64,000 nucleotides of DNA from UHGV virus genome UHGV-0229283; one strand, given 5' to 3'. The DNA comes from a virus. The notes under the pieces were generated by a model, which had not been told where the DNA came from, searched no databases, and was given only the letters and a program-made list of their open reading frames with translations. This document shows, one piece after another, positions 2,260-59,554 of this stretch (position 1 is its first letter; each line of letters opens with the position of its first letter). The translations under genes and the position numbers were made by a program.

Positions 2260-3273
2260 ATGGCAGTAGTACGCACTAATGATTTCCAGATCGTTGACCT
2301 AGGCGCAACTCTGGAAATTGTACCTCGTCAGTACCGTATGATCACCAACATGAACCTTTTCGAGGCTTATCACGGTGTCTCTACTATCGCCCAGATCGAG
2401 CGTGTTGACGAAGTTGTAACCGACTTCCCAGCTCGTCGTCGTCAGGGTGAACGTAACTACGTTGGTACTGAAAAGGCCCAACTGAAAAACTTCAACATCC
2501 CGTTCTTCCCGCTGGATCGTCAGATCACTCCGGCAGACGTACAGAACTTCCGTAAATATTTCACTGCGGACGCTCCTAAATCTGTACAGGATGTAGTTGA
2601 ACGCGTTGTTCGTCGTATCCGTATTTCTCATGAACAGCTTAAAGAAAAAGCAATGCTTCAGGCAATCATGGGTAAATCTTGGGCACCGCAGGACCCGACC
2701 GCTCAGTATAACTACTTCACCGAATGGGGTGTTACCCAGGAAGTTGTTAACGTAGATTTCACTGACGTTGCAGTTGACCCGTCTGACCTGCTCGAAAACG
2801 ATGGTCGTGCATTCATCATCGACAACGCGGGTGACAACGGAAACAACTACGACATCGTAGTCCTGGCTTCTCGTAAATGGTTCTCTGCTTTCGTAGGTCA
2901 CCCGCTGATCATGAACGCATACCAATACTACAGTTCCACTCAAGAACCGCTGCGCCGTCGTCTTGGTGACGGACAAGAGAACGCTAACAACCGTTCCTTC
3001 GTTCATAAGAACGTTCTGTACATCGAAGATATCTCCGGCTACATCCCGGACGGTGAAGCTTACATGCTGCCACGCGGTATCGACAACATGTTCCAGATCC
3101 ACTACGCGCCAGCAGACGATGTTCGTGAAGCGAACACTCCGGCACAAGAACTGTACCTGTGGTACAAATCTTCTGCTTACCTGCGTGAAGAGAAGGTTGA
3201 ATCTGAAACCTCCTTCCTGACAGTTAACTGCCGCCCAGAGCTGGTTGTTAAACTGACTGGTACTTTCGCGTAA
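2260..3273 (+). CDS. major capsid protein
   Basis: 337 aa with highly biased, highly expressed-type codon usage and RBS AAGGAGAAAA. Position after the scaffold gene. A strong antisense ORF overlaps it, which is typical of highly expressed capsid genes. Confidence 0.6.
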   Translation: MAVVRTNDFQIVDLGATLEIVPRQYRMITNMNLFEAYHGVSTIAQIERVDEVVTDFPARRRQGERNYVGTEKAQLKNFNIPFFPLDRQITPADVQNFRKYFTADAPKSVQDVVERVVRRIRISHEQLKEKAMLQAIMGKSWAPQDPTAQYNYFTEWGVTQEVVNVDFTDVAVDPSDLLENDGRAFIIDNAGDNGNNYDIVVLASRKWFSAFVGHPLIMNAYQYYSSTQEPLRRRLGDGQENANNRSFVHKNVLYIEDISGYIPDGEAYMLPRGIDNMFQIHYAPADDVREANTPAQELYLWYKSSAYLREEKVESETSFLTVNCRPELVVKLTGTFA

Positions 3274-3391
3274 TATAGCTTAAAGCTACCTCTAAGAGGG
3301 GGAGGTGTTAATCACCTCTCCCTTTTTTCATTTTAAGATTAGCATGGTGATCTTATATGTCAAGAGGTTTATGAGGACCAAAGGAGATTCT

Positions 3392-3941: not shown

Positions 3942-4241
3942 ATGGCAACATCTGGTGTAGCTGGACTGGTCTACGGTACAAAACTGATTGACATTGCAAC
4001 TGGCGGAGTTATTTCCTTCGCTGATGTTATTGCTGCCGCTGGCAGTGGCGGATCTGTGGCATGGGCCGATATTACTGGTAAGCCTACCACTTTTGCTCCC
4101 GTAGCTGCAACCACTTCTGTGGTTGGCGGTGTTAAAATGGCGGCAACACAGGCCAATACGGTTGCGACTGACCTAGCTGGACTGGTTACCGACTTTAATG
4201 CCCTTCTTTCCAAGCTGAAGGCTGCTGGCATTATGGCGTAA
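3942..4241 (+). CDS. small Gly/Ala-rich structural protein with a fibre-like WxDITGKPxTFAP motif
   Basis: 99 aa, RBS TAGGAGA, followed by a strong terminator. The motif W-A-D-I-T-G-K-P-T-T-F-A-P resembles a motif I recall from phage tail-fibre proteins. Confidence 0.4.
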   Translation: MATSGVAGLVYGTKLIDIATGGVISFADVIAAAGSGGSVAWADITGKPTTFAPVAATTSVVGGVKMAATQANTVATDLAGLVTDFNALLSKLKAAGIMA

Positions 4242-4244
4242 TAT

Positions 4245-4270
4245 AAAGGCCCTCCGGGGCCTTATTTTTT
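4245..4270. terminator. bidirectional rho-independent terminator
   Basis: GGCCC-TCCG-GGGCC hairpin followed by ATTTTTTT on the + strand. It sits between convergent genes. Confidence 0.6.
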
Positions 4271-4660
4271 TAGTAGCGGTCTCGCCTCTGGTTTCAAAGA
4301 TACCTGAAGATAAGGTTGTCGGCCATCCTTATAATATTTACAGATGTAAGTTCCTGTTGCAAGAACAGTACCGTTCACTATCCCCATATTTCTCATTACT
4401 TGGAAACTATCTTCTTGTTCTTCCATCTCATCTAACATACCTGTCTGCGTCGTCAGAGTGCCGGGAATGAATGCCTTTCTGAATTCTGTATCGCATTTCA
4501 TCCCAGCAATCCGATGAATGGCCTCTGTTTTTTCTTCAGCCGACAACCAGCTTGAAGAAACATCGTCGAATTTGTTCATATTGGGGTTGGTTTTCATAAA
4601 GTAGATAAGTCCACCCGAGACAACGATGGCTGTGATAACACCTGCTATTACTGCTTTCAT
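4262..4660 (-). CDS. membrane-anchored moron protein (hypothetical)
   Basis: Only minus-strand gene inside the structural module. Start chosen at MKAVIAGVITAIVVSGGLIYF (one N-terminal TM) with RBS GAGGAG. It has its own sigma70-like promoter. Confidence 0.5.
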   Translation of the reverse strand: MKAVIAGVITAIVVSGGLIYFMKTNPNMNKFDDVSSSWLSAEEKTEAIHRIAGMKCDTEFRKAFIPGTLTTQTGMLDEMEEQEDSFQVMRNMGIVNGTVLATGTYICKYYKDGRQPYLQVSLKPEARPLLKK

Positions 4661-53270: not shown

Positions 53271-55258
53271 TATTTCTCTCCTTTGCTATCAATAAATTTA
53301 CGATACTCAGCCACCTCTGGTGAGTTAAAATGCTCCATCGAGATGTGCTTCAGTAACGGGTAACGTTCTTTTACCTTGTTAATCAGGCTTTTCCCAACAC
53401 GAATACGTCCATTGACGATTCTCTTCGCAGTTCTTTCTGCACTATAATAACCTTTAACATGGTAAAGGGTACTAGCCATATTAACCTTTTCCTTGTATTC
53501 AGGATCTTTGACAACCTCTACACCTATTCCCTTTAAGTCGTCCAAGAGAGAGCGATACTCACGCTGTCTGGTTAACTGATTAAGATGATAATCCAACAGG
53601 TTTGAACTTGCAACCTTATAAAGGTCGTCCTGTGTAATCATCCTAACATCATCATCCAGCCAACTCACTCGGTTTAAAGGTACGATGTATAATTTATCAT
53701 CAATACCAAGATCTGACAAGAAGGTCTCCGGTTGATGACGGTTAGAAAGGTACGCCGTAGACCCAAGGTCACAAGTCCCTCGTGCCTGACCACCAGAATA
53801 GATCATGGCATATTTGATATCATCAAATTCCGCACGGGAGATACGTGTTTTCCTAATAGCTCCACTCTGCTCAATGATCCATACTGGATGCCCTGGTTCA
53901 TACAGGCTATAGCCGCCATACTTTTTATCCGATTTCGATGCTGGACGCTTTTCCAAATCCGACAGCTTATGGATCATTCCCGCAAAGAATGGATTATCAC
54001 ACATTTGTGCCACACCAAGATTGTCCGTCAGATAGACGGCCTTGCCTGTTACATCAAACAACTGATTACATTTACTTCTAACCAGCTTATTGTCGTCGTT
54101 GTATACAAGATGGTAACCATTCATCATATCCGCATATGAATAGTCTTTGTCAGTTCTACGCTTCTCCCCGTGGCCGTTGTAAGTTACACATTCCTTGACG
54201 CTTACAGAGTCAACATAATCTCTGAACAATTCCGCAATGTATTTTGCGCCGTATTTTGTAGCAAACCACCCGCCAACTCGCTTCATATACTCCAGAACAT
54301 CCGCAAGTTTTGGAAGCTTACGGAGTTCATGGTAAATTTCTTCACCACGGCGATCAAGGGCCGTCTGAACGAATGTCTTAAGGCGCTCTTCGAAGCCACG
54401 GTCATTCTTGCCCTCGATAGTCCATTCACGTCCCGGATTGACATCGCAATCCCCGATTGGGATGGACACCATCATCAGGGGCCATTCAGGGTTATTGCTC
54501 AGAAACTTTGATTTGTACGGCTGTTGTCCCATAACCACAACGCTATCAGCATTGTTAGATACCGACGAATACATTTCCAGCATCCAACCAGATTCTTCAT
54601 CTTTGAACGTATACTGCACCGGGTAGGTACGGTCTCGAATAGATGAAGTCACAAATGGGTCATTGATCTCGTAAGGGAACTTAGCATAACGCAGGCAACT
54701 GATAATTGCACGGCGGTATTTCTCAGTCTCTGCCGGGTCAACGTTGAATTTGATTTCAACACCATTTTCTTCTATGGTTTTTGACTCGTGGAGAGGCACA
54801 ACCTCAGGTATCCCTTGGTCTTTATGAACAGAGTACACAGTTTTAGTACCATCTTTGATGGAGATGACACTGAACATGTCCGTAACGGTGAACGGGGCCT
54901 TGGAACCAATACCTTTCGCACCGATCAGATCGTTGGATTCACGTTTGGTGGACGACCCCAGCATCATGAAGGTCTGGGTAACCATGTCAAAGTCCATCCC
55001 AATACCACCATCCTTGACAGAATACCACGGTTCTAGGTCAGTTGGGGAGTGGATGATAATCGGTTTATCCCGGCATCCGGCTTCTGTGTGTGCATCTACC
55101 GCATTGAACAGGGGTTCACGACAGGCAGCAAGGATCTTGTCCTCATAAATACCATCGATCAAGATACTGAAAGTTTCAGCATTAATCGCGATACCAGCCT
55201 GATAGCGTTTGACGTTGGTACTAACTTCTACCTTCTTCTCATTACGCTCGATTATCAT
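53270..55258 (-). CDS. rIIA-like protein with an N-terminal GHKL (HATPase_c) domain
   Basis: N-box EPLFNAVDAH, G1 VKDGGIGM and G2 GAKGIGSKA, as in T4 rIIA. 662 aa. Confidence 0.55.
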   Translation of the reverse strand: MIIERNEKKVEVSTNVKRYQAGIAINAETFSILIDGIYEDKILAACREPLFNAVDAHTEAGCRDKPIIIHSPTDLEPWYSVKDGGIGMDFDMVTQTFMMLGSSTKRESNDLIGAKGIGSKAPFTVTDMFSVISIKDGTKTVYSVHKDQGIPEVVPLHESKTIEENGVEIKFNVDPAETEKYRRAIISCLRYAKFPYEINDPFVTSSIRDRTYPVQYTFKDEESGWMLEMYSSVSNNADSVVVMGQQPYKSKFLSNNPEWPLMMVSIPIGDCDVNPGREWTIEGKNDRGFEERLKTFVQTALDRRGEEIYHELRKLPKLADVLEYMKRVGGWFATKYGAKYIAELFRDYVDSVSVKECVTYNGHGEKRRTDKDYSYADMMNGYHLVYNDDNKLVRSKCNQLFDVTGKAVYLTDNLGVAQMCDNPFFAGMIHKLSDLEKRPASKSDKKYGGYSLYEPGHPVWIIEQSGAIRKTRISRAEFDDIKYAMIYSGGQARGTCDLGSTAYLSNRHQPETFLSDLGIDDKLYIVPLNRVSWLDDDVRMITQDDLYKVASSNLLDYHLNQLTRQREYRSLLDDLKGIGVEVVKDPEYKEKVNMASTLYHVKGYYSAERTAKRIVNGRIRVGKSLINKVKERYPLLKHISMEHFNSPEVAEYRKFIDSKGEK

Positions 55259-55427
55259 CTACTTCTCCTACTTTTTGCAGTTATTTATATTTAGTCTAAA
55301 GGCCGCTGTAGCCATACCTATTGCGTATGCTCCACAAATTTGTTCCCAATACATGGGCTGTGACAGTGACAATATCACACACAGAGGGGTAATGCAAACA
55401 AATATTACTAAGAATTTCTTCATGAGT

Positions 55428-55985
55428 TCATGCCCCCTGAGAATCTTCTTTCTCTTTATAATATATATGGTTATCGATCCTGACTGTGCGTAGCATGGCC
55501 TTTGTCCAGTAGGGTTTTACTTTTCGTGAATGGTAGTGGGTTGCTCCATGTGTTATGTCCAGAGCATCGTAGACGATCCTGTTTTGTTTATGAATCTTGA
55601 TCAGAACTTTTGCAAACTCTTGTGCCTTCTCCCAGCGATCCTTTTCATAGACTTTAAACGTTGTTCCTGAAGATGTCCAGGAGAATTGTCCGGGCTGGTA
55701 GACGATCTTTTTTACTGTTCCAGGGTACTTATCGTTATCCTTACGATTCAAAGTTACGAATGCGATCGACATTAACCCGGAATCACTCTCTCCACGAGCT
55801 TCTTTGTACATGTTGCAGGCTAAAATGTTTACCACTGTATCATCTTTTTTGCACAGATGAATTACCTTGGGCTTCTTTGCGTTGTCTTTAGCCAGTACAG
55901 GTGTGGTGGCTAGAGAAAACACACAGGCGGTTGCCAGAATCAGATTTTTCAATTTCAAATTTACACTCCAAATTAAAAGCCCCAT
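55428..55985 (-). CDS. secreted cell-wall hydrolase, SleB / Hydrolase_2 family (candidate endolysin)
   Basis: Signal peptide KLKNLILATACVFSLATTPVLA. LACNMYKEARGES...AFVTLNR...YQPGQFSW matches the SleB-type hydrolase domain. The true start is possibly the TTG at KLKNL, after GGAG. Confidence 0.55.
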   Translation of the reverse strand: MGLLIWSVNLKLKNLILATACVFSLATTPVLAKDNAKKPKVIHLCKKDDTVVNILACNMYKEARGESDSGLMSIAFVTLNRKDNDKYPGTVKKIVYQPGQFSWTSSGTTFKVYEKDRWEKAQEFAKVLIKIHKQNRIVYDALDITHGATHYHSRKVKPYWTKAMLRTVRIDNHIYYKEKEDSQGA

Positions 55986-55996
55986 TGCGGGGCTAA
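55976..55996 (-). terminator. hairpin terminator downstream of tnpB (possibly the IS right-end hairpin)
   Basis: On the minus strand: AGCCCC-GCAAT-GGGGCT followed by TTTTAATTT. It overlaps the start codon of the hydrolase. Confidence 0.45.
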
Positions 55997-57347
55997 GATG
56001 CTATAATTTTACTTATGGGTCAACCCCTTATTAAGGATATTTTTTGCAGCATTAATGTCTGCATTCTCAGTATGACCGCAAGAAATACATAAAAATTTAG
56101 CTTGTGTTTTCCTGTTTTCTTTTGATACATACCCACATCCAGAGCACGTCTGAGAGGTATATGCTGGATTAACAATCATTAACTCACTTCCGTACCTGAT
56201 CGTTTTGTAAGCTAACTGCATACGTACCGAGTATAGACTCATATTTAGAATCTCTCGGTTAAGCCCTGTTTTAGCCTTCACATTTTTACCAGGCTGTTCA
56301 ATCGTTCCTTTTGACGATTTCGTCATATTGGAAACTTTCAAATCTTCCAGAACAATTTTGTAGGATTTTGTAGCCAACTTTTTAGTAAGTTTGTGGCAGG
56401 CGTCTTGGCGAATACTCCCTTGTTTGGACTTGCGTACAGTGATCATTTCGCCAAGCTTTTTGTATCTTGCGCTGCCTTTCTGGCATTTGGCTTGCTTACG
56501 TTGAAGAATACGAATACGTTCTTCAAGAGCCTTTAACGATTCTTTAGGATACTCCTCATGCCATGCTGTTTCACTATCTGAATCATAGCATGTTGCATAC
56601 TGTGCAACACCTAAGTCAACACCAACACACATTTCCCTTTTATTAGAGATCTGATAATAATCTTCGTCAGGTATTTCAAAGATGAAAGCAACATACCAGT
56701 CACCAGCAGTTTTGCTGAACGTGGTATTCATAAGTTTCCCATTCAGGATACGTGCAGGTATCTTATCTCCCAGTTTCATCTTTCCAAGTCTGTTGTGGAT
56801 GATGTAAGCCCCAACGTCATCAAGATTCTTTTCCTTTTTGAAGTCTGTATTGCTTAATTTAAAACCTTTCCTGCGATGCTTTGATTGAAACTTGGGTCTG
56901 CCTCCAAGCTTTTTGAAGCATCGCTGCCATGCCTCTTTGAGGTCATACTTTATAGCAAGCTGGCCAACACTACCGGGTATCCCATTTAACCATGTGTGGA
57001 TTCCTGAGCCTAACATTACTCCAGATTTTGTTGGCTTTTTAAAACCGAGAGGGTATTTACCTTGGTTAAAAAATTTATCGTATTCATTTATTTTTGCCAA
57101 TTTCCATTTTTCATCAGGAGATAGGGTTTCTTGGTCTATGAAACATAACCCTAATGCATAATTAAAAGCATAACGTCTGGCGTTGCTCCAATGAAGAAGA
57201 GTGCTGTTTTGGCGATTATTTGTACCAACTTTTGTTTTAAAACCTACCATCATGATAATCATCTACCTGCGCTGTTAAAGTTCATTCCGACAGTACCACA
57301 CTACGTGAGGAACGTGATAGAATGGAGAGTTCGTGCATACAGTCCAG
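55997..57347 (-). mobile_element. IS200/IS605-family insertion carrying only tnpB (approximate ends)
   Basis: A TnpB gene with no neighbouring TnpA, flanked by hairpins, inserted between the wall hydrolase and RNA ligase genes. The ends are not mapped. Confidence 0.4.
56009..57262 (-). CDS. tnpB: TnpB (IS605 OrfB) RNA-guided nuclease-like transposon protein
   Basis: 417 aa. The C-terminal RuvC-III / zinc finger is CSGCGYVSKENRKTQAKFLCISCGHTENADINAAKNI. The RuvC-I region is CVGVDLGV. Confidence 0.75.
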   Translation of the reverse strand: MIIMMVGFKTKVGTNNRQNSTLLHWSNARRYAFNYALGLCFIDQETLSPDEKWKLAKINEYDKFFNQGKYPLGFKKPTKSGVMLGSGIHTWLNGIPGSVGQLAIKYDLKEAWQRCFKKLGGRPKFQSKHRRKGFKLSNTDFKKEKNLDDVGAYIIHNRLGKMKLGDKIPARILNGKLMNTTFSKTAGDWYVAFIFEIPDEDYYQISNKREMCVGVDLGVAQYATCYDSDSETAWHEEYPKESLKALEERIRILQRKQAKCQKGSARYKKLGEMITVRKSKQGSIRQDACHKLTKKLATKSYKIVLEDLKVSNMTKSSKGTIEQPGKNVKAKTGLNREILNMSLYSVRMQLAYKTIRYGSELMIVNPAYTSQTCSGCGYVSKENRKTQAKFLCISCGHTENADINAAKNILNKGLTHK

Positions 57348-57495
57348 AGGTTATCCCCACATATTTTGGGGGCACCTGATATCTGTGATACGCTAGGAGG
57401 ACTACATCGGTTTATCCCACATTGTGGGGAACACGGGCAGCGATTTGTAGCGATCCGGGTTGGCCTCGGTTTATCCCCACGCATGTGGGGAACAC
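57348..57495 (-). CRISPR. mini-array with type I-E-like repeats: 3 repeats (one degenerate) and two 32-nt spacers, transcribed on the minus strand
   Basis: R3 57467-57495 CGGTTTATCCCCACGCATGTGGGGAACAC, R2 57408-57434, degenerate R1 57348-57375. Spacers are 57435-57466 and 57376-57407, each exactly 32 nt. The E. coli / Salmonella I-E repeat is CGGTTTATCCCCGCTGGCGCGGGGAACAC in this orientation; ours shares the same flanks and has compensatory stem changes. Confidence 0.55.
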
Positions 57496-57786
57496 TCTAA
57501 CCGTAAACATATGGCAACCTTAGTGTTTTAAGCCCACTTAAAATCTACCGAGTTGTGTTCCCAAATTTGTAGAGATAGGAGCAAAGCTCCTGAAGGACTT
57601 ATGCAACTAAGTTGCAGCCCCCTTCTTCCTTCATAGACTCGCTAATGCTTATCTCCAGAAGCATAACTTCGGCGTTAACCACACCTAGAGGATTGGCTCC
57701 CAACAAGAGACACTATACAGTGTCTCTTAATTGGAGTCAACAATTATTTTCTAAGAATATCCCCTGAAACTGTTTTCACATTACCT
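57496..57786 (-). other. AT-rich non-coding region at the leader-proximal side of the mini-array, containing several perfect hairpins
   Basis: 290 bp without an ORF. Hairpins GGAGCAAAGCTCC, TGCAACTAAGTTGCA and AGAGACACTATACAGTGTCTCT. It is positioned where a CRISPR leader and promoter would be. Confidence 0.35.
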
Positions 57787-57978
57787 TCAATAAACTTCTG
57801 TTCTGGTCTCACCACTTTTAATGATCCTCGCTTTTTGGGCATGATAGACAAACTGTTTGTTCTCTTTAACAAACTTTTTGCCCTGTTCTTCGTCTTCGAA
57901 AATCAAGGTATCACACTCGGTGAAAGAATGTCCAGGCCTTTTTTCAACAGACCGCGTTGTGGCTACAATGAGGGACAT
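57787..57978 (-). CDS. hypothetical protein
   Basis: 63 aa ORF. Confidence 0.3.
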   Translation of the reverse strand: MSLIVATTRSVEKRPGHSFTECDTLIFEDEEQGKKFVKENKQFVYHAQKARIIKSGETRTEVY

Positions 57979-59069
57979 TAGCCCTCCTCACTCAGACGAG
58001 TCATGTACCATGCACGAGCTTTGTTGCTGATAAACTTGCCAACATCTTTCATGGTCATGGAGCTGGCTTCCAGAACATCACCCTCTTCCTTGTTGATGTC
58101 TCGGTTAATCCACCCAATGAATTCACCGATCTTAGTCTTGTCAAGACCGACTTCGCTGACACCCTGCTCAAGACGTGCTTCCGTCACAGCGTACTCAACG
58201 AACTCACGCATACTTGCGAGGCGTTCTGGGTCGATTGCCGCCAGGGTCTTAACTTTGGATACAGAGTGTTTATCACCTTTGACTTTAAACCACAGGCCAG
58301 AGATTTTAGAAAGCTCAGGATCTTTTGGAGACCAGACAATGCCTTCACCGATACCTTCTACGCCAAAGAACTTACCTGCCGGGCATTTGTTTTCCACTTC
58401 ACGAGTCAGTTCTGCCAGGTCATTCTGGACAAGTTCCGGCTCATTGAATGGGATATTAGCCATCCAGTAACCGAAGTCAAGGATACTGTAGATACGAGCA
58501 TCCGGCAATCCAATTCCAAACTGGAACGTTGGTGGTAGCCAGTTGAGGGTATCCGTTGCCTCATCCCGTCCCACAGCCACACGGAAGATAGCAAAGAACG
58601 GCTCTACTTCAGTGATGGCAACACCTTTCTGAATGCCACGCCCAGCCCATTCACCAGCAATTTCAACCGGGAACTGGAACTCGACGTCATTGACTTCACA
58701 CAGGTATTTAACCTGTGAAAGCAACTCTGCGGTGTCTTTTCGAGACATGAAGGCCGCGAAGCCATTGTTATCGTCGCCTACAGTCACGACACGCTCTTTG
58801 GACTGGAAGACAACTTCATCCTCAGAGTGGAATACCACACTGCCATTAGTGCCGTGAAGCTTAACCGTACCGATGTACGGGATCAGGTACGCTTCCGGTG
58901 GCAACACCTTTCGCTTGATATTACCCTCTTCATCAATACCGTCGAACGTCAGTTTATCATGCATGGTGCGGATAACCTGACGGAACTGTGCGGTGCTTGG
59001 GTATTTAATTGGTTTTGTCAATTTTATTCTCCTCAAATAATTTGCTAATGTGTCCGCCAGAAAGTTCAA
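57978..59069 (-). CDS. ATP-dependent RNA ligase (Rnl2-like nucleotidyltransferase)
   Basis: Motif I VKLHGTNGS matches Rnl2 KIHGTN (K is the adenylated lysine). Downstream EGIVW and WFKVKGDKH resemble motifs IV and V. The listed start is a TTG with a poor RBS, so the true start is uncertain. Confidence 0.5.
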   Translation of the reverse strand: MNFLADTLANYLRRIKLTKPIKYPSTAQFRQVIRTMHDKLTFDGIDEEGNIKRKVLPPEAYLIPYIGTVKLHGTNGSVVFHSEDEVVFQSKERVVTVGDDNNGFAAFMSRKDTAELLSQVKYLCEVNDVEFQFPVEIAGEWAGRGIQKGVAITEVEPFFAIFRVAVGRDEATDTLNWLPPTFQFGIGLPDARIYSILDFGYWMANIPFNEPELVQNDLAELTREVENKCPAGKFFGVEGIGEGIVWSPKDPELSKISGLWFKVKGDKHSVSKVKTLAAIDPERLASMREFVEYAVTEARLEQGVSEVGLDKTKIGEFIGWINRDINKEEGDVLEASSMTMKDVGKFISNKARAWYMTRLSEEG

Positions 59070-59238
59070 GAACTACATATCTTTGTTGGTCATCAAAATA
59101 CTGCTTCCCACCCCATGTTGCGTGGACAAGATTCCACGCATTCTTGGCAGCGCCAGAGCTAATCCATCCAATCTTGGCTTTGTGGTTCCAGAGGCATCTG
59201 TCAACAGTGTCATAGATGACAAAAACCAATTTACTCAT
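59005..59238 (-). CDS. hypothetical protein
   Basis: Start set at MSKLVF with RBS GGAGGG. It overlaps the 5' end of the RNA ligase ORF as listed. Confidence 0.25.
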   Translation of the reverse strand: MSKLVFVIYDTVDRCLWNHKAKIGWISSGAAKNAWNLVHATWGGKQYFDDQQRYVVLELSGGHISKLFEENKIDKTN

Positions 59239-59554
59239 CAGGACCCTCCAGCTTCCAGCCACGACTATTCAGCCATTCGTCAATCTGAATACCCGTGCCG
59301 TCACCACTTGGTTTCTCTACCCCAAGTAGTAGTATGGCAAAGCTCTGACCACGAGGGGCGTTATAGGTTAACACCGTATTACCCACATAAAGGTCGATCT
59401 TTTTGGTATGTGCTACCATACCGTCTCTCAATTTAACCACGATAATCCAGTCCCCCCTGTGGATAATCCACATTTTGTCATTTCCCGAATGGCAGCGATC
59501 TGTTCTGATGTCAGAGGGCCGTCGTCTGGAGGGTAGTAACCAGGGATTTCCCAT
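59231..59554 (-). CDS. hypothetical protein
   Basis: 107 aa. The N-terminal part overlaps the macro gene, so the true start may be the internal Met at 59473 or 59419. Confidence 0.25.
   Translation of the reverse strand: MGNPWLLPSRRRPSDIRTDRCHSGNDKMWIIHRGDWIIVVKLRDGMVAHTKKIDLYVGNTVLTYNAPRGQSFAILLLGVEKPSGDGTGIQIDEWLNSRGWKLEGPDE

Follow-up and report, generated by a model that had tools for sequence, protein, structure and literature searches.

A putative TnpB-derived, type V-like CRISPR module with a type I-E-like mini-array in a virulent Klebsiella-type phage

RESULTS

A 1.8-kb cassette built around a TnpB-sized nuclease

A 1796-bp segment (55995..57790) on the minus strand of the 64-kb window, the whole stretch of DNA analyzed here, joins a predicted promoter, a scaffold RNA, a leader, a mini-CRISPR array and a single effector gene in a virulent Klebsiella-type phage. 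A sequence-only reading had described a transposon lying beside an array; the segment is better described as a minimal TnpB-derived CRISPR–Cas-like module. We consider it likely that the ORF encodes the effector of a phage-borne, TnpB-derived type V-like CRISPR system that is close to Cas12n/V-U4 in its RuvC lobe. No report of such a system in enterobacterial virulent phages was found in the literature.

The limits of the module are defined by a blastn comparison with the Proteus phage Mydo, where 585 bp with genes 015 and 016 stand in place of the 1796 bp and homology to the window covers 55000–55994 and 57791–59500 only. Just ∼14 nt separate the effector stop codon from the resumed backbone homology. 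The Salmonella phage KE23 carries the entire segment at 80.7% identity by blastn. As the sequence-only reading noted, the TnpB gene lies between a cell-wall hydrolase (Hydrolase_2) and an RNA ligase without tnpA; the effector is in fact the sole gene of the segment. No cas3, Cascade or cas1–2 genes lie within or adjoining the phage module, and an Rfam scan of 54500–59500 with E-values up to 1 matched no family. In relatives, the variable regions that house the cassette hold HNH homing endonucleases.

The alignment to Mydo indicates cassette replacement rather than the IS605-family insertion that had been proposed. IS-like ends, terminal hairpins belonging to the segment, a clean empty site and a TTAC/TCAC-type target are all lacking, so the insertion hypothesis fails. 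The hairpin reported at the 3′ end of the gene does exist (55978..55994, running 55994–55978 on the minus strand; AGCCCCGCAATGGGGCT followed by a T-run), but it is a terminator-like element of the phage backbone, nearly identical in module-less Mydo, and is not part of the module. The overlap with the hydrolase start codon that had been suggested is probably not real either, since the start annotated in Mydo corresponds to TTG 55958, preceded by GGAG, and not to ATG 55985.

The effector ORF (56009..57262, minus strand) encodes 417 aa, although translation may in fact begin at Met4 (57253), as the length of 414 aa in the closest homologs suggests. It is an intact TnpB-family nuclease gene, as first described, and shows no degradation: the RuvC residues D216, E306 and D402 and the zinc-finger cysteines C373, C376, C392 and C395 are invariant or nearly so among 43 homologs. 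The C-terminus lies 15 residues past D402. Pfam matches are to OrfB_IS605 (1e-15) and Cas12f1-like_TNB (9e-21). The AF2 model has a pLDDT of 89, and its top fold match is ISDra2 TnpB (8h1j; TM 0.70/0.79); ISDra2 and ISFba1 TnpB are the best matches in the fold search, with 9J09 outside the top 50. By sequence, the best solved match is RdCas12n (9J09, E 3e-37), over residues 169–411 in the RuvC lobe only, in an alignment that includes the stretch EDLxVxxMTxSAKGTxExPGKNVxxKSGLNR. PADLOC scores Cas12f at 234 bits and Cas12u4 at 233 bits, the latter model being aligned over its full length. The generic NCBIfam model guided_TnpB is exceeded (207 bits, cut-off 100); the curated cut-offs for IS200_TnpB (135 versus 425) and IS607_TnpB (140 versus 350) are missed.

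The present effector family spans 410–458 aa and occurs in Gammaproteobacteria and their phages. The remark that TnpB is rare in phage genomes is borne out at this level of similarity: only two of 50,697 phage records, KE23 (88.7%) and KP13-16 (76.1%), have an effector homolog above ∼40% identity. In the deposited annotation the protein is a 'transposase' in KE23 and a 'hypothetical protein' in KP13-16, and the array is annotated at neither locus.

An ωRNA-derived scaffold precedes the array

The region's best sigma-70-type promoter prediction (TTGACT–17 nt–TATAGT; 57712..57740, minus strand) matches the consensus at 10/12 positions and is kept in KE23, KP13-16, an IMG/VR contig and Logan contigs. 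It could drive the scaffold and the array, and possibly the effector. Between the promoter and the array lies a putative structured non-coding RNA of ∼210 nt (57496..57705, minus strand; 5′ end placed from the promoter), which we interpret as an ωRNA-derived, tracr-like scaffold. Compared with KE23, its conservation is far above that of the adjacent spacers, one variable hairpin excepted, and the minimum free energy has a z-score of –1.9.

Four helices make up the 5′ module of the scaffold (57611..57693, minus strand), which is matched by our covariance model R1 with 88.6 bits (E 6e-20). In alignment A5 (14 pairs), 94.5% of cells are paired versus 68% in shuffles, and compensatory changes are present in 12 of the 14 pairs; none of 500 shuffles reaches the observed values. 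The model detects every unit, with E-values from 1e-13 to 1e-20, and its five weak matches (E 3e-4 to 0.02) are all to the 3′ ends of conventional tnpB genes. The guide RNA had been expected at the 3′ end of the effector gene; the model finds nothing there, and its single match in the window is upstream of the effector. In relatives, scaffold-homologous units are placed before the effector, after it or on both sides, and in many of these genomes the scaffold–array unit begins right past the effector stop, which is the usual position of an ωRNA. Judged by model homology and covariation, the scaffold descends from an ωRNA of the kind that normally follows tnpB. A direct blastn comparison of the upstream scaffold with the downstream region of KP13-16 is marginal (24/31, E 0.009), and the kinship becomes convincing only through the additional units and the covariance model. 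In the ωRNAs of related viral TnpB loci that we examined, a GC hairpin and a short linker precede the guide, and this terminal arrangement has the same shape as an I-E repeat.

A candidate anti-repeat, CTATCTCTACAAATTTGGGAACACA (57554..57578, minus strand), complements nt 1–25 of the repeat in two helices. RNAduplex gives –24.8 kcal/mol for the anti-repeat:repeat pairing, with z-scores of –1.8 to –3.0 in seven of eight window-type upstream units, and the centroid fold also contains this pairing. In the contig L027, a different segment of the scaffold, at a comparable place nearer the array, complements its different repeat. A matrix of scaffold × repeat cross-pairing for all unit types was meant as a covariation test of the anti-repeat and is equivocal, the cognate pair being not consistently the best; for this reason we put the tracr model forward as an inference only. 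Support for the anti-repeat is clear for window-type and L027 units only, with modest z-scores.

The last 58 nt before the array (57496..57553, minus strand) read as a leader that ends in ...ATATGTTTACGGTTAGA directly before repeat 1. Its end agrees with that of the Escherichia coli K-12 I-E leader (ACAAATGTATACTTTTAGA) at, by our own count, 14/19 positions in the window and 17/18 in KP13-16 and L024, a likeness that is confined to the last ∼20–30 nt and was seen by direct reading only. Searches of the scaffold against E. coli genomes returned no leader-like match, only a partial protospacer for spacer 1.

The array is of type I-E character and turns over

The mini-array (57348..57495, minus strand) comprises three repeats of the 29-nt type and two 32-nt spacers. 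Read in the direction of transcription, it consists of repeat 1 (GTGTTCCCCACATGCGTGGGGATAAACCG, 57495–57467), spacer 1 (57466–57435), a 27-nt repeat 2 (57434–57408), spacer 2 (57407–57376) and a degenerate repeat 3 (57375–57348). A decayed trailer (57287..57347, minus strand) follows, with a fossil spacer 3 (57347–57314) and a degenerate repeat 4 (57313–57287). The sequence-only reading had TnpB flanked by an I-E-like array; the array is located immediately upstream of the gene and on the same strand, and the repeats are indeed of I-E type. The array itself has the sequence features expected for I-E: the 29-nt repeat consensus, 32-nt spacers, an I-E-like leader end and an AAG-type PAM. Long arrays with the window-type repeat pattern occur in Pantoea, Erwinia and Serratia.

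Relative to the window, KE23, KP13-16 and the IMG/VR contig L004 keep the repeats and carry unrelated spacers. The trailer is common to the window and L004 while the leader-proximal spacers differ, which fits acquisition at the leader end. Changes are also seen between close relatives. L080 is 99.6% identical to the window over 57407–59098 and has both window spacers, with one additional repeat–spacer unit between spacers 1 and 2; L079 has one unit fewer than L022 and retains spacer 1 of the latter. Apart from such near-identical pairs (L079/L022 and L080/window), spacers differ among units.

Spacers match plasmids and capsid-encoding islands

Ten protospacers were located, in plasmids, a phage-plasmid and integrase/capsid islands. 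Spacer 1 of the window matches a 6.5-kb plasmid of Klebsiella pneumoniae at 32/32 positions beside an AAG PAM. The 5′ triplets of the ten protospacers are AAG (six cases), GAG, AGG, ATG and GGG, so that nine of ten carry an I-E PAM; for a set of four of the 64 triplets this corresponds to P ∼1e-10 by our own calculation, assuming equally likely triplets. These PAMs may mirror acquisition rather than a preference of the effector.

The targeted islands bear an integrase, are an estimated ∼12–13 kb long, lie beside tRNA genes and encode a major capsid protein. The same integrase/capsid islands, at tRNA-Thr and tRNA-Gly, are hit by several spacers that come from different phages, a convergence that speaks for selection of the targets. 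In the collections searched, no match was obtained for spacer 2 of the window, for the extra spacer of L080 or for most spacers of relatives. Neither window spacer matches any phage record, and there is no self-target in the window with up to three mismatches. In the phage collection, eight spacers found nothing beyond the arrays; thirty-four further spacers gave no plasmid match and, in phages, only a flank-derived guide.

The unit recurs at different sites and in different forms

Effector, scaffold and I-E-like array occur together in KE23, KP13-16, L004 and the Logan contigs L022–L027, L030 and L032. In total, the linked unit is found in about ten phage genomes or contigs and at three bacterial loci, and the linkage holds across ∼40% protein divergence. 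Its genomic sites vary, and include the interval between hydrolase and RNA ligase, a tRNA region and others. The question raised earlier, whether the array was carried in together with TnpB, has a clear answer: nuclease and array move as a single unit, seen in no fewer than three phage lineages and at a number of genomic sites. Four of seven metagenome pattern hits (L076–L078 and L081) were rejected; the rest of the scaffold is absent from them, and they resemble chance hits in sequence that is unrelated and apparently coding.

The unit ranges in form from a flank-guided single repeat (L024) through two-spacer phage arrays to 10-repeat bacterial arrays and a locus with Cas1e–Cas2e (L037). L024 occupies one extreme: a lone downstream repeat closes the module, whose final base is that of the repeat, and phage backbone makes up the next 32 nt. 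An ωRNA that overlaps or succeeds the effector 3′ end, with the flank as guide, is found in L024, L026 and L028. The flank-guide sequence of L024/L026 is present in the module-less phages FKP3, phi1_175008, KP13-26 and KP2025; in FKP3, the one whose flank was read, the L024 sequence is preceded by AAG. Two different I-E repeat families make up the two arrays of L027.

Bacterial relatives occupy the other extreme. Those in Vibrio and Photobacterium have long arrays, with 9- and 4-repeat arrays in P. angustum. The V. agarivorans locus (INDEPENDENCE from Cascade) has the order effector, scaffold, 10-repeat array, Cas1e (370 bits), Cas2e (120 bits), second array and second effector, and the 10 kb to each side of it contain neither Cascade genes nor cas3.

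DISCUSSION

A working model and its alternatives

In the model that we favor, the promoter at 57740–57712 would transcribe the ∼210-nt scaffold, then the array and probably the effector mRNA. The scaffold may pair with each repeat in the manner of a tracrRNA, or form a continuous guide with repeat 1 and spacer 1. The effector would take up repeat–spacer guides and cut DNA whose protospacer lies beside the observed 5′ AAG-type motif. Transcription, processing, RNP assembly and RNA-guided cleavage are all predicted steps. Repeats of 29 nt, spacers of 32 nt and a leader that ends in TTAGA indicate a type I-E origin for the array and the leader end, and for this reason new spacers would most likely be inserted by Cas1e–Cas2e, which the host would have to supply in trans, as the phage module has no such genes. 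Resident mobile elements, namely small plasmids, a phage-plasmid and capsid-encoding islands, are what the spacers target, and this points to a contest among mobile elements, with satellites as possible opponents. Flanking phage DNA occupies the position of the last guide in some relatives, an anatomy that would permit TnpB-style RNA-guided homing into module-less phages.

Several observations do not sit easily with this model. The repeat arms and both handles match those of genuine I-E repeats, which means that a host Cas6e/Cascade could accommodate the RNAs as well. As a set, the PAMs AAG, AGG, ATG and GAG suit I-E Cascade or Cas1e–Cas2e better than the Cas12n rule, because A is found at position –2 in just 7/10 protospacers (AAG in 6/10). 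Moreover, the array is upstream of the effector, and the effector is without the REC/WED expansions of Cas12n.

Virus-borne mini-arrays that rely on host Cas proteins are known, and the array may be one of these, processed by host Cas6e and used by host Cascade/Cas3 to destroy rivals, with the TnpB-like gene serving separately in homing or maintenance with an ωRNA of its own. In its repeats, 32-nt spacers, leader end and PAM set the array is canonically I-E, the live spacers of KP13-16 and the window have repeats on both sides and could mature via Cascade, and the two repeat families of L027 look as if matched to different hosts. We nevertheless regard this reading as unlikely. It leaves the constant joining of the array to an ωRNA-derived scaffold and one effector clade unexplained, as well as the repeat-complementary segment of the scaffold, and the V. 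agarivorans locus combines Cas1e–Cas2e and two effectors with no Cascade or cas3 within 10 kb. In I-E biology, a spacer without a following repeat cannot mature as a Cascade crRNA; the terminal guides of L024 and L026 have no downstream repeat and so cannot yield one. Use of the array by the effector and by host Cascade is not mutually exclusive.

TnpB performs RNA-guided homing for its transposon, and a mainly selfish cassette that cuts module-less alleles at co-infection and is copied by repair, with incidental plasmid and island matches, would account for the last guides of L024 and L026, which equal flanking DNA carried by module-less phages (beside AAG in FKP3), and for the residence of the cassette in variable regions with HNH homing endonucleases in relatives. 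We think this improbable as the main function, as the window copy has no flank guide (14 nt past the stop the backbone resumes, and the spacers match no window or phage sequence) and the spacers of different phages converge on the same islands. Phages are known to carry RNA anti-CRISPRs that consist of solitary repeats, and the repeats found here do match a natural I-E repeat family, so that they could mimic host repeats and soak up Cas6e or Cascade subunits; such a decoy, however, needs no spacers, whereas those found here are exactly 32 nt, turn over and match mobile elements beside I-E PAMs, and the conserved scaffold and linked nuclease would be unaccounted for. We give this explanation very little credence. 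Less still attaches to the idea that an ordinary TnpB-only IS200/IS605 element (IS1341-type) happened to insert next to an array that the phage already had. The Pfam OrfB_IS605 and NCBIfam guided_TnpB matches and the 'transposase' annotation in KE23 agree with it, but it is already contradicted by the lack of both IS ends and a clean empty site, by the co-occurrence of array and gene at unrelated sites and by the missed IS200_TnpB and IS607_TnpB cut-offs. Module-less relatives have no array, which speaks against a pre-existing one, and the one scaffold match within the window implies a single copy.

Implications

Returning to the TnpB-derived CRISPR system that we favor, we tentatively suggest, with somewhat less than even confidence, that this family may be an extant intermediate on the path that led to type V systems. 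An I-E leader–repeat unit would have been grafted onto the 3′ end of an ωRNA, rather than repeats arising from the ωRNA, so that host or linked Cas1e–Cas2e could rewrite the guide of a TnpB-sized enzyme; phages would carry a stripped-down version as a weapon against plasmids and capsid-encoding islands (candidate satellites) and as a homing cassette. The range of forms makes this route from TnpB to Cas12, in which an array and adaptation module of class 1 are captured, testable.

If the model is correct, phages of the kind studied for therapy carry a programmable nuclease guided against host plasmids and islands. With ∼1.8 kb in total and a 417-aa effector, the module would be among the smallest natural CRISPR-like systems, and an AAG-type PAM such as the one seen here is uncommon in type V enzymes. 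The convergence of spacers on islands points to a phage–satellite conflict in Enterobacteriaceae comparable to that of ICP1 and PLE, and one that could be tested in culture, as KP13-16 and KE23 exist as isolates.

Comparison with known systems

Arrays of conserved type V systems are almost always downstream of the effector, and many accepted variants are without cas1/cas2. Among solved structures, Cas12n (type V-N, formerly V-U4 or c2c9; RdCas12n and AcCas12n) comes nearest to the effector by sequence, in the RuvC lobe only. Its loci usually have no adaptation genes and encode a long ωRNA-like tracrRNA near the 3′ end of the gene; RdCas12n has a tracrRNA of ∼170 nt and 5′-AAN PAMs, and the PAM of AcCas12n is AAG, a rare A-rich 5′ PAM. 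Cas12n differs in its expanded REC/WED, and its long disordered C-terminal tail, which overlaps the tracrRNA, whereas the effector described here has a plain TnpB fold. In the window, moreover, the array has a predicted promoter of its own and comes before the effector; its repeats, spacer length and leader end follow the I-E pattern, and the carriers are virulent enterobacterial phages. Cas12n proper is rejected on architecture even though it is nearest among solved sequences.

The Cas12r-CRISPR system of Thermus Lalka phages comprises a TnpB-like nuclease and a short array of 29-bp repeats that resemble host I-E repeats, with 32–33-bp spacers that target integrative elements at tRNA genes and a PAM that overlaps AAG; adaptation genes are missing from these phages, and a role for the I-E adaptation machinery of the host has been proposed (bioRxiv 10.64898/2026.04.20.719267). 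Cas12r has 564 aa, belongs to a TnpB branch said to be thermophile-specific, has its array downstream and needs no tracrRNA (bioRxiv 10.64898/2026.04.20.719267). Compared by description only, the two systems are alike in the phage-borne TnpB-like nuclease, the I-E-like array and the AAG-type PAM, and differ in that the present family has 410–458 aa, a ∼200-nt ωRNA-like scaffold and often two arrays.

TranC systems, regarded as transposon–CRISPR intermediates, tie TnpB-sized or slightly larger nucleases to arrays, and their guides are thought to have arisen by a split of the ωRNA into tracrRNA and crRNA. CauTranC9, from a Caudoviricetes genome, averages 414 aa, and repeats of TranC clade 9 are 38 bp long; LaTranC (PDB 9jfo) is only a distant match to the effector (E 8e-6). 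By contrast, the 29-nt I-E repeat found here looks captured from an I-E locus and not derived from an ωRNA. CauTranC9 was ruled out as the same system by its 38-bp repeat, Cas12 hacker/Cas12p (500–700 aa, GTN PAM) by size and PAM, and Cas-delta (867–936 aa) by size.

Canonical TnpB–ωRNA systems (ISDra2 and ISFba1) share the fold, the catalytic triad and the zinc finger, and the scaffold 5′ module matches as well. L024 would likewise use flanking DNA as a guide, with the motif in the empty allele. Unlike these transposons, the module has no tnpA, no transposon ends, a single copy and an AAG-type target motif, and an exchangeable spacer array takes over from, or adds to, the fixed flank guide. 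With E. coli K-12 CRISPR-1 (type I-E), the array shares identical outer repeat arms (GTGTTCCCC...GGGGATAAACCG), 32-nt spacers, a similar leader end (...TACTTTTAGA) and the PAMs AAG, AGG, ATG and GAG. It is distinguished from the I-E arrays of Enterobacterales by the phage setting without cas3, Cascade or cas1–2, by having two live spacers only and by the ωRNA-like scaffold beyond the last ∼58 nt, which has no match in E. coli.

The Vibrio phage ICP1 has its own type I-F CRISPR–Cas system with its own adaptation genes and spacers against the host-integrated satellite PLE, which hinders the phage. It is similar in being a virulent phage with a CRISPR system of its own, although the satellite nature of the targets is here only inferred. 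ICP1 carries a full multi-gene class 1 system, whereas the present module consists of one ∼1.25-kb gene and RNA.

Replacement of a backbone segment in the phage genome

The window derives from a virulent phage of enterobacteria, a member of the Mydovirus group (Vequintavirinae). Its region 55000–59500, where all genes lie on the minus strand, is 95–99% identical to Proteus phage Mydo, Klebsiella phages KB57 and KP12 and others, and these relatives cover only ∼60% of it, in two pieces. Within this region, homology to Mydo is limited to 55000–55994 and 57791–59500, with 1796 bp of the window standing where Mydo has 585 bp with two small genes. Backbone homology resumes ∼14 nt after the tnpB stop codon. 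The interval concerned (55995–57790, between the hydrolase and RNA ligase genes) is prone to swapping, and relatives have other small genes or HNH endonucleases there. A sequence-only reading had taken the locus for an IS605-family insertion. Alignment to module-less Mydo shows a replacement rather than an IS insertion, and the effector scores under the curated NCBIfam cut-offs for IS200_TnpB and IS607_TnpB, passing only the generic guided_TnpB model. That reading is borne out in part as an observation, with its IS interpretation replaced.

The hairpin AGCCCCGCAATGGGGCT and its T-run (55994–55978, minus strand) had been noted as lying where the guide RNA region would be expected. Because Mydo carries it too, we interpret it as a backbone terminator, and not as a transposon end or guide RNA region. 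It had also been thought to overlap the hydrolase start. The longest hydrolase ORF does begin within the hairpin, at ATG 55985, but the start annotated in Mydo corresponds to TTG 55958, which is preceded by GGAG and gives a signal-peptide-like N-terminus (MKLKNLILATACVFSLA); the start is therefore probably outside the hairpin. Within the rIIA-like gene, a 13-nt sequence at 55059–55071, ATCGGTTTATCCC, equals the reverse complement of the repeat 3′ end plus one spacer base, a match that is probably due to chance.

A TnpB-like effector

The effector ORF (56009–57262, minus strand) encodes 417 residues with Pfam matches to OrfB_IS605 and Cas12f1-like_TNB. RuvC residues D216, E306 and D402 and a CxxC…CxxC zinc finger are retained, in keeping with the RuvC domain and zinc finger named in the sequence-only reading, and are invariant or nearly so in an alignment of 43 homologues; the gene is not a degraded pseudogene by this measure. 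An AlphaFold model is confident (pLDDT 89, pTM 0.74), and its top structural matches are the ISDra2 and ISFba1 TnpB proteins (TM 0.70/0.79), followed by Cas12f. Intact residues, a confident model and matches to the TnpB fold together indicate a real, apparently active nuclease of TnpB size, its activity being a prediction from sequence and model.

Layout and recurrence of the module

The 530 nt upstream of the effector ORF on the minus strand comprise a promoter, a non-coding stretch, repeats, spacers and a decayed trailer. A sequence scan places a near-consensus promoter, TTGACT-17-TATAGT, at 57740–57712, followed on the same strand by ∼210 nt of non-coding sequence, three I-E-type repeats (the first being GTGTTCCCCACATGCGTGGGGATAAACCG) with two 32-nt spacers, and a decayed third spacer and fourth repeat.

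Salmonella phage KE23 (Seunavirus) carries the same 1.8-kb segment, 81% identical and in the corresponding position. Between KE23 and the window the spacers are unrelated, whereas the repeats and the non-coding stretch, one variable hairpin excepted, are far better conserved. Klebsiella phage KP13-16, of another subfamily (Stephanstirmvirinae), has an effector of 76% identity in a tRNA region, with promoter, scaffold and repeats as in the window and two further spacers. The IMG/VR contig L004 combines a 94% identical effector with two other spacers and the window's decayed trailer, and Logan contigs with effector homologues at 85% to 47% identity provide more cases, many of them with a second scaffold-plus-array unit directly after the effector stop codon. 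Arrays also differ by whole units: the 137-kb contig L080, which matches the window at 99.6% identity over 57407–59098, contains an additional repeat-spacer unit between spacers 1 and 2 of the window, and contig L079 has lost one unit relative to Logan contig L022. This co-occurrence in relatives, together with the differences between arrays, indicates that nuclease and array form one mobile unit with evolving arrays. It answers the earlier question of whether the array arrived with the TnpB; the I-E-like array was correctly recognized but is part of one module and no mere flank of an IS.

Logan contig L030 has three copies of the scaffold 5′ module round one effector, two upstream (986–1068 and 1442–1526) and one downstream (3201–3285) that is cut by the contig end.

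Scaffold RNA and candidate anti-repeat

We aligned 13 upstream and downstream units across a four-helix 5′ module of 84 nt. In this alignment 94.5% of cells are paired versus 68% in shuffles, both sides change in 12 of 14 pairs, and the observed values exceed those of all 500 shuffles; slid controls give at most 0.25 versus 0.73 observed. One 4-bp helix, read from the alignment, occurs in six complementary versions (CTTC/GAAG, CTCG/CGAG, CCTG/CAGG, TTTG/CAAA, CTGA/TCAG and TCGG/CCGA). The covariance model of the module, R1, matches the window at 57611–57693 with 88.6 bits. Its weaker matches (E roughly 3e-4 to 0.02) on other viral contigs fall, in all five cases, at the 3′ end of conventional tnpB genes, the location of omega RNA. 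From this covariation and model homology we conclude that the non-coding stretch is a scaffold derived from omega RNA. In four of these five conventional RNAs the guide is preceded by a terminal GC hairpin and a short 'GGAGGATGTCAA'-like linker, so that a conventional omega-RNA end appears to be shaped like an I-E repeat, with a hairpin and an 8-nt handle before the spacer.

In the fifth, on viral contig L010 (IMGVR_UViG_3300017971_000275, ∼4040–4380), the RNA is followed by an array of its own, with 28-nt repeats GTGCTTCCCACGTATGTGTGGATGGTAC and 32–33-nt spacers, downstream of a TnpB of 35% identity. I-E-like arrays may thus accompany more of this TnpB branch. Contig L075 (Ga0208609_102496, ∼1480–1900) has a window-type 5′ scaffold module fused to a conventional omega-RNA 3′ end (…GGATGGGGAGGATGTCAAT), directly followed by an ORF whose N-terminus, on reading, resembles the start of another TnpB; it may represent a link between ordinary omega RNAs and the array-bearing scaffold.

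A candidate anti-repeat, CTATCTCTACAAATTTGGGAACACA (57578–57554, minus strand), pairs with repeat positions 1–25 at −25 kcal/mol, and this pairing is present in the centroid fold. On Logan contig L027 the upstream array has another repeat family, TCTTCCCCACATACGTGGGGGTGTTTCC, and the scaffold has a different sequence that is complementary to that repeat and lies nearer its array, which supports a tracrRNA-like anti-repeat. In a cross-pairing matrix of scaffolds by repeats for all unit types, cognate pairing is not consistently best, and because this matrix is equivocal we regard the predicted anti-repeat pairing as likely rather than shown.

Type I-E array and bacterial relatives

Repeats are 29 nt long and intact spacers, including 34 extracted from relatives, are exactly 32 nt with a few exceptions. 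Long genuine arrays with this repeat pattern occur in Pantoea, Erwinia, Serratia and others. The leader end of KP13-16 and Logan contig L024 matches that of E. coli K-12 CRISPR-1 at 17 of 18 positions (CAAATGTATACTTTTAGA), and by our own count that of the window matches at 14 of 19; for the remaining scaffold, searches of E. coli genomes gave no match. From these comparisons the array and leader end are assigned to type I-E. Contig L027 (SRR26434398) has one effector between two arrays (2340–2488 and 3992–4142) of two I-E repeat families, each with its own scaffold copy. The upstream repeat, TCTTCCCCACATACGTGGGGGTGTTTCC, is of the K. pneumoniae I-E type and the downstream repeat, GTGTTCCCCGCATACGTGGGGATAAACC, of the E. 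coli type.

In Photobacterium angustum, the scaffold and an array of 9 or 4 repeats come after effector homologues of ∼40% identity. In two strains with identical effectors (L033, 4063–4585, and L034, 2270–2488) the first and the last two spacers are common to both, and one strain has five extra spacers in mid-array, a difference that indicates internal deletion or recombination within the array. Vibrio agarivorans shows the order effector, scaffold, 10-repeat array, Cas1e (370 bits against the cas1_ECOLI model), Cas2e, second array and second effector of the same family, with no Cascade or cas3 gene in the 10 kb searched on each side and with recombinases and IS3 transposases flanking the region. 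This chromosomal island (GCA_025996475.1, 10001–15649) has paralogous effectors of 452 and 511 residues flanking Cas1e–Cas2e, and an array accompanies each; that of the second effector (repeat AACACATCCCTACGCGTATAGCTGCAAC, plus strand) is upstream of it, and model R1 found no scaffold for this array. Within the range searched, the bacterial relatives are full systems without Cascade.

Spacer targets and flanking motifs

Window spacer 1 matches (32/32) a small ORF upstream of the primase-helicase gene of a 6.5-kb K. pneumoniae plasmid, and KP13-16 spacer 2 matches (32/32) a 120-kb K. pneumoniae plasmid that looks like a phage-plasmid because it carries a capsid gene. KP13-16 spacer 1 (33/33) and a spacer of Logan contig L026 (31/32) match positions 180 bp apart in the same island adjoining tRNA-Thr in ten E. 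coli genomes. Spacer 1 of L004 and spacer 2 of L022 match another island at the same tRNA-Thr site, L022 spacer 1 matches an island at tRNA-Gly, and both L023 spacers match one gene whose product, read from sequence, resembles an integrase remnant. The islands encode an integrase and an HK97-type major capsid protein and are matched by spacers of several different phages. They resemble satellites or small cryptic elements, and Vequintavirinae or Stephanstirmvirinae may be their helper phages. Such islands lie on E. coli chromosomes at tRNA-Thr (thrW) or tRNA-Gly (L071, 8728–12000+; L072, 5023–18032; L074, 1–12798); that of L072, ∼13 kb as estimated from annotated coordinates, also has a replication-initiator-like gene.

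The 5′ flanks of ten protospacers are AAG (six), GAG, AGG, ATG and GGG. E. coli I-E has four known PAMs, and nine of the ten flanks fall within them. Spacers gave no match to lytic phages except for one flank guide. L024 and L026 have one or two repeats in the downstream unit; the last base of the final repeat closes the module, and the next 32 nt are phage backbone. Module-less phage FKP3 has the same backbone sequence after …GAAAG, where the repeat's final G coincides with the G of AAG. By analogy with transposons, this flank is a putative guide whose motif exists only in the empty allele, and it would let the cassette cut module-less relatives.

Mechanistic model and alternatives

In the best-supported model, which we consider fairly probable, scaffold and repeat-spacer RNAs would direct the effector to cleave DNA beside AAG-type motifs, this RNA-guided cleavage being an inference. 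The system would be TnpB-derived and type V-like, with array and adaptation interface taken from type I-E. Its spacers would come from Cas1e–Cas2e, which Vibrio has in the locus itself and which the phages presumably obtain from the host.

According to the main rival, which seems improbable to us, the phage array serves host Cascade, and this could hold in addition to guided cleavage by the effector. That reading explains neither why scaffold and effector are obligatory nor why some arrays end in a flank guide, and it does not account for bacterial loci free of Cascade. In I-E biology, a spacer without a downstream repeat cannot mature as a Cascade crRNA, so the terminal flank spacer would yield none. 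Readings of the module as a homing device only, as a decoy or as a plain IS are less likely. The module sits in cultured virulent phages, which makes it of interest and the cleavage model directly testable.

Relation to known systems

We found no report of TnpB or CRISPR in the literature on Vequintavirinae, Stephanstirmvirinae, Mydovirus, KP13-16 or KE23. Among solved sequences the effector comes closest to RdCas12n (type V-N, formerly V-U4), with E 3e-37 over the RuvC lobe; that system has a tracrRNA of ∼170 nt and AAN PAMs. In PADLOC the Cas12u4 model ties with a Cas12f model. Although RdCas12n is nearest, we do not file the effector as Cas12n because, unlike Cas12n, it keeps the unexpanded TnpB architecture.

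In function and ecology, Cas12r-CRISPR of Thermus Lalka phages would be the closest analogue. As described in a preprint of April 2026 (bioRxiv 10.64898/2026.04.20.719267), Cas12r belongs to a thermophile-specific branch and differs from the present effector in being larger, lacking a tracrRNA and having its array downstream. TranC systems, including the 414-residue CauTranC9 from a Caudoviricetes genome, have the idea in common with the present module but differ in sequence and in their 38-bp repeats. Altae-Tran et al. list 40 array-associated TnpB branches, with arrays almost always downstream, and the present effector family may be one of these.
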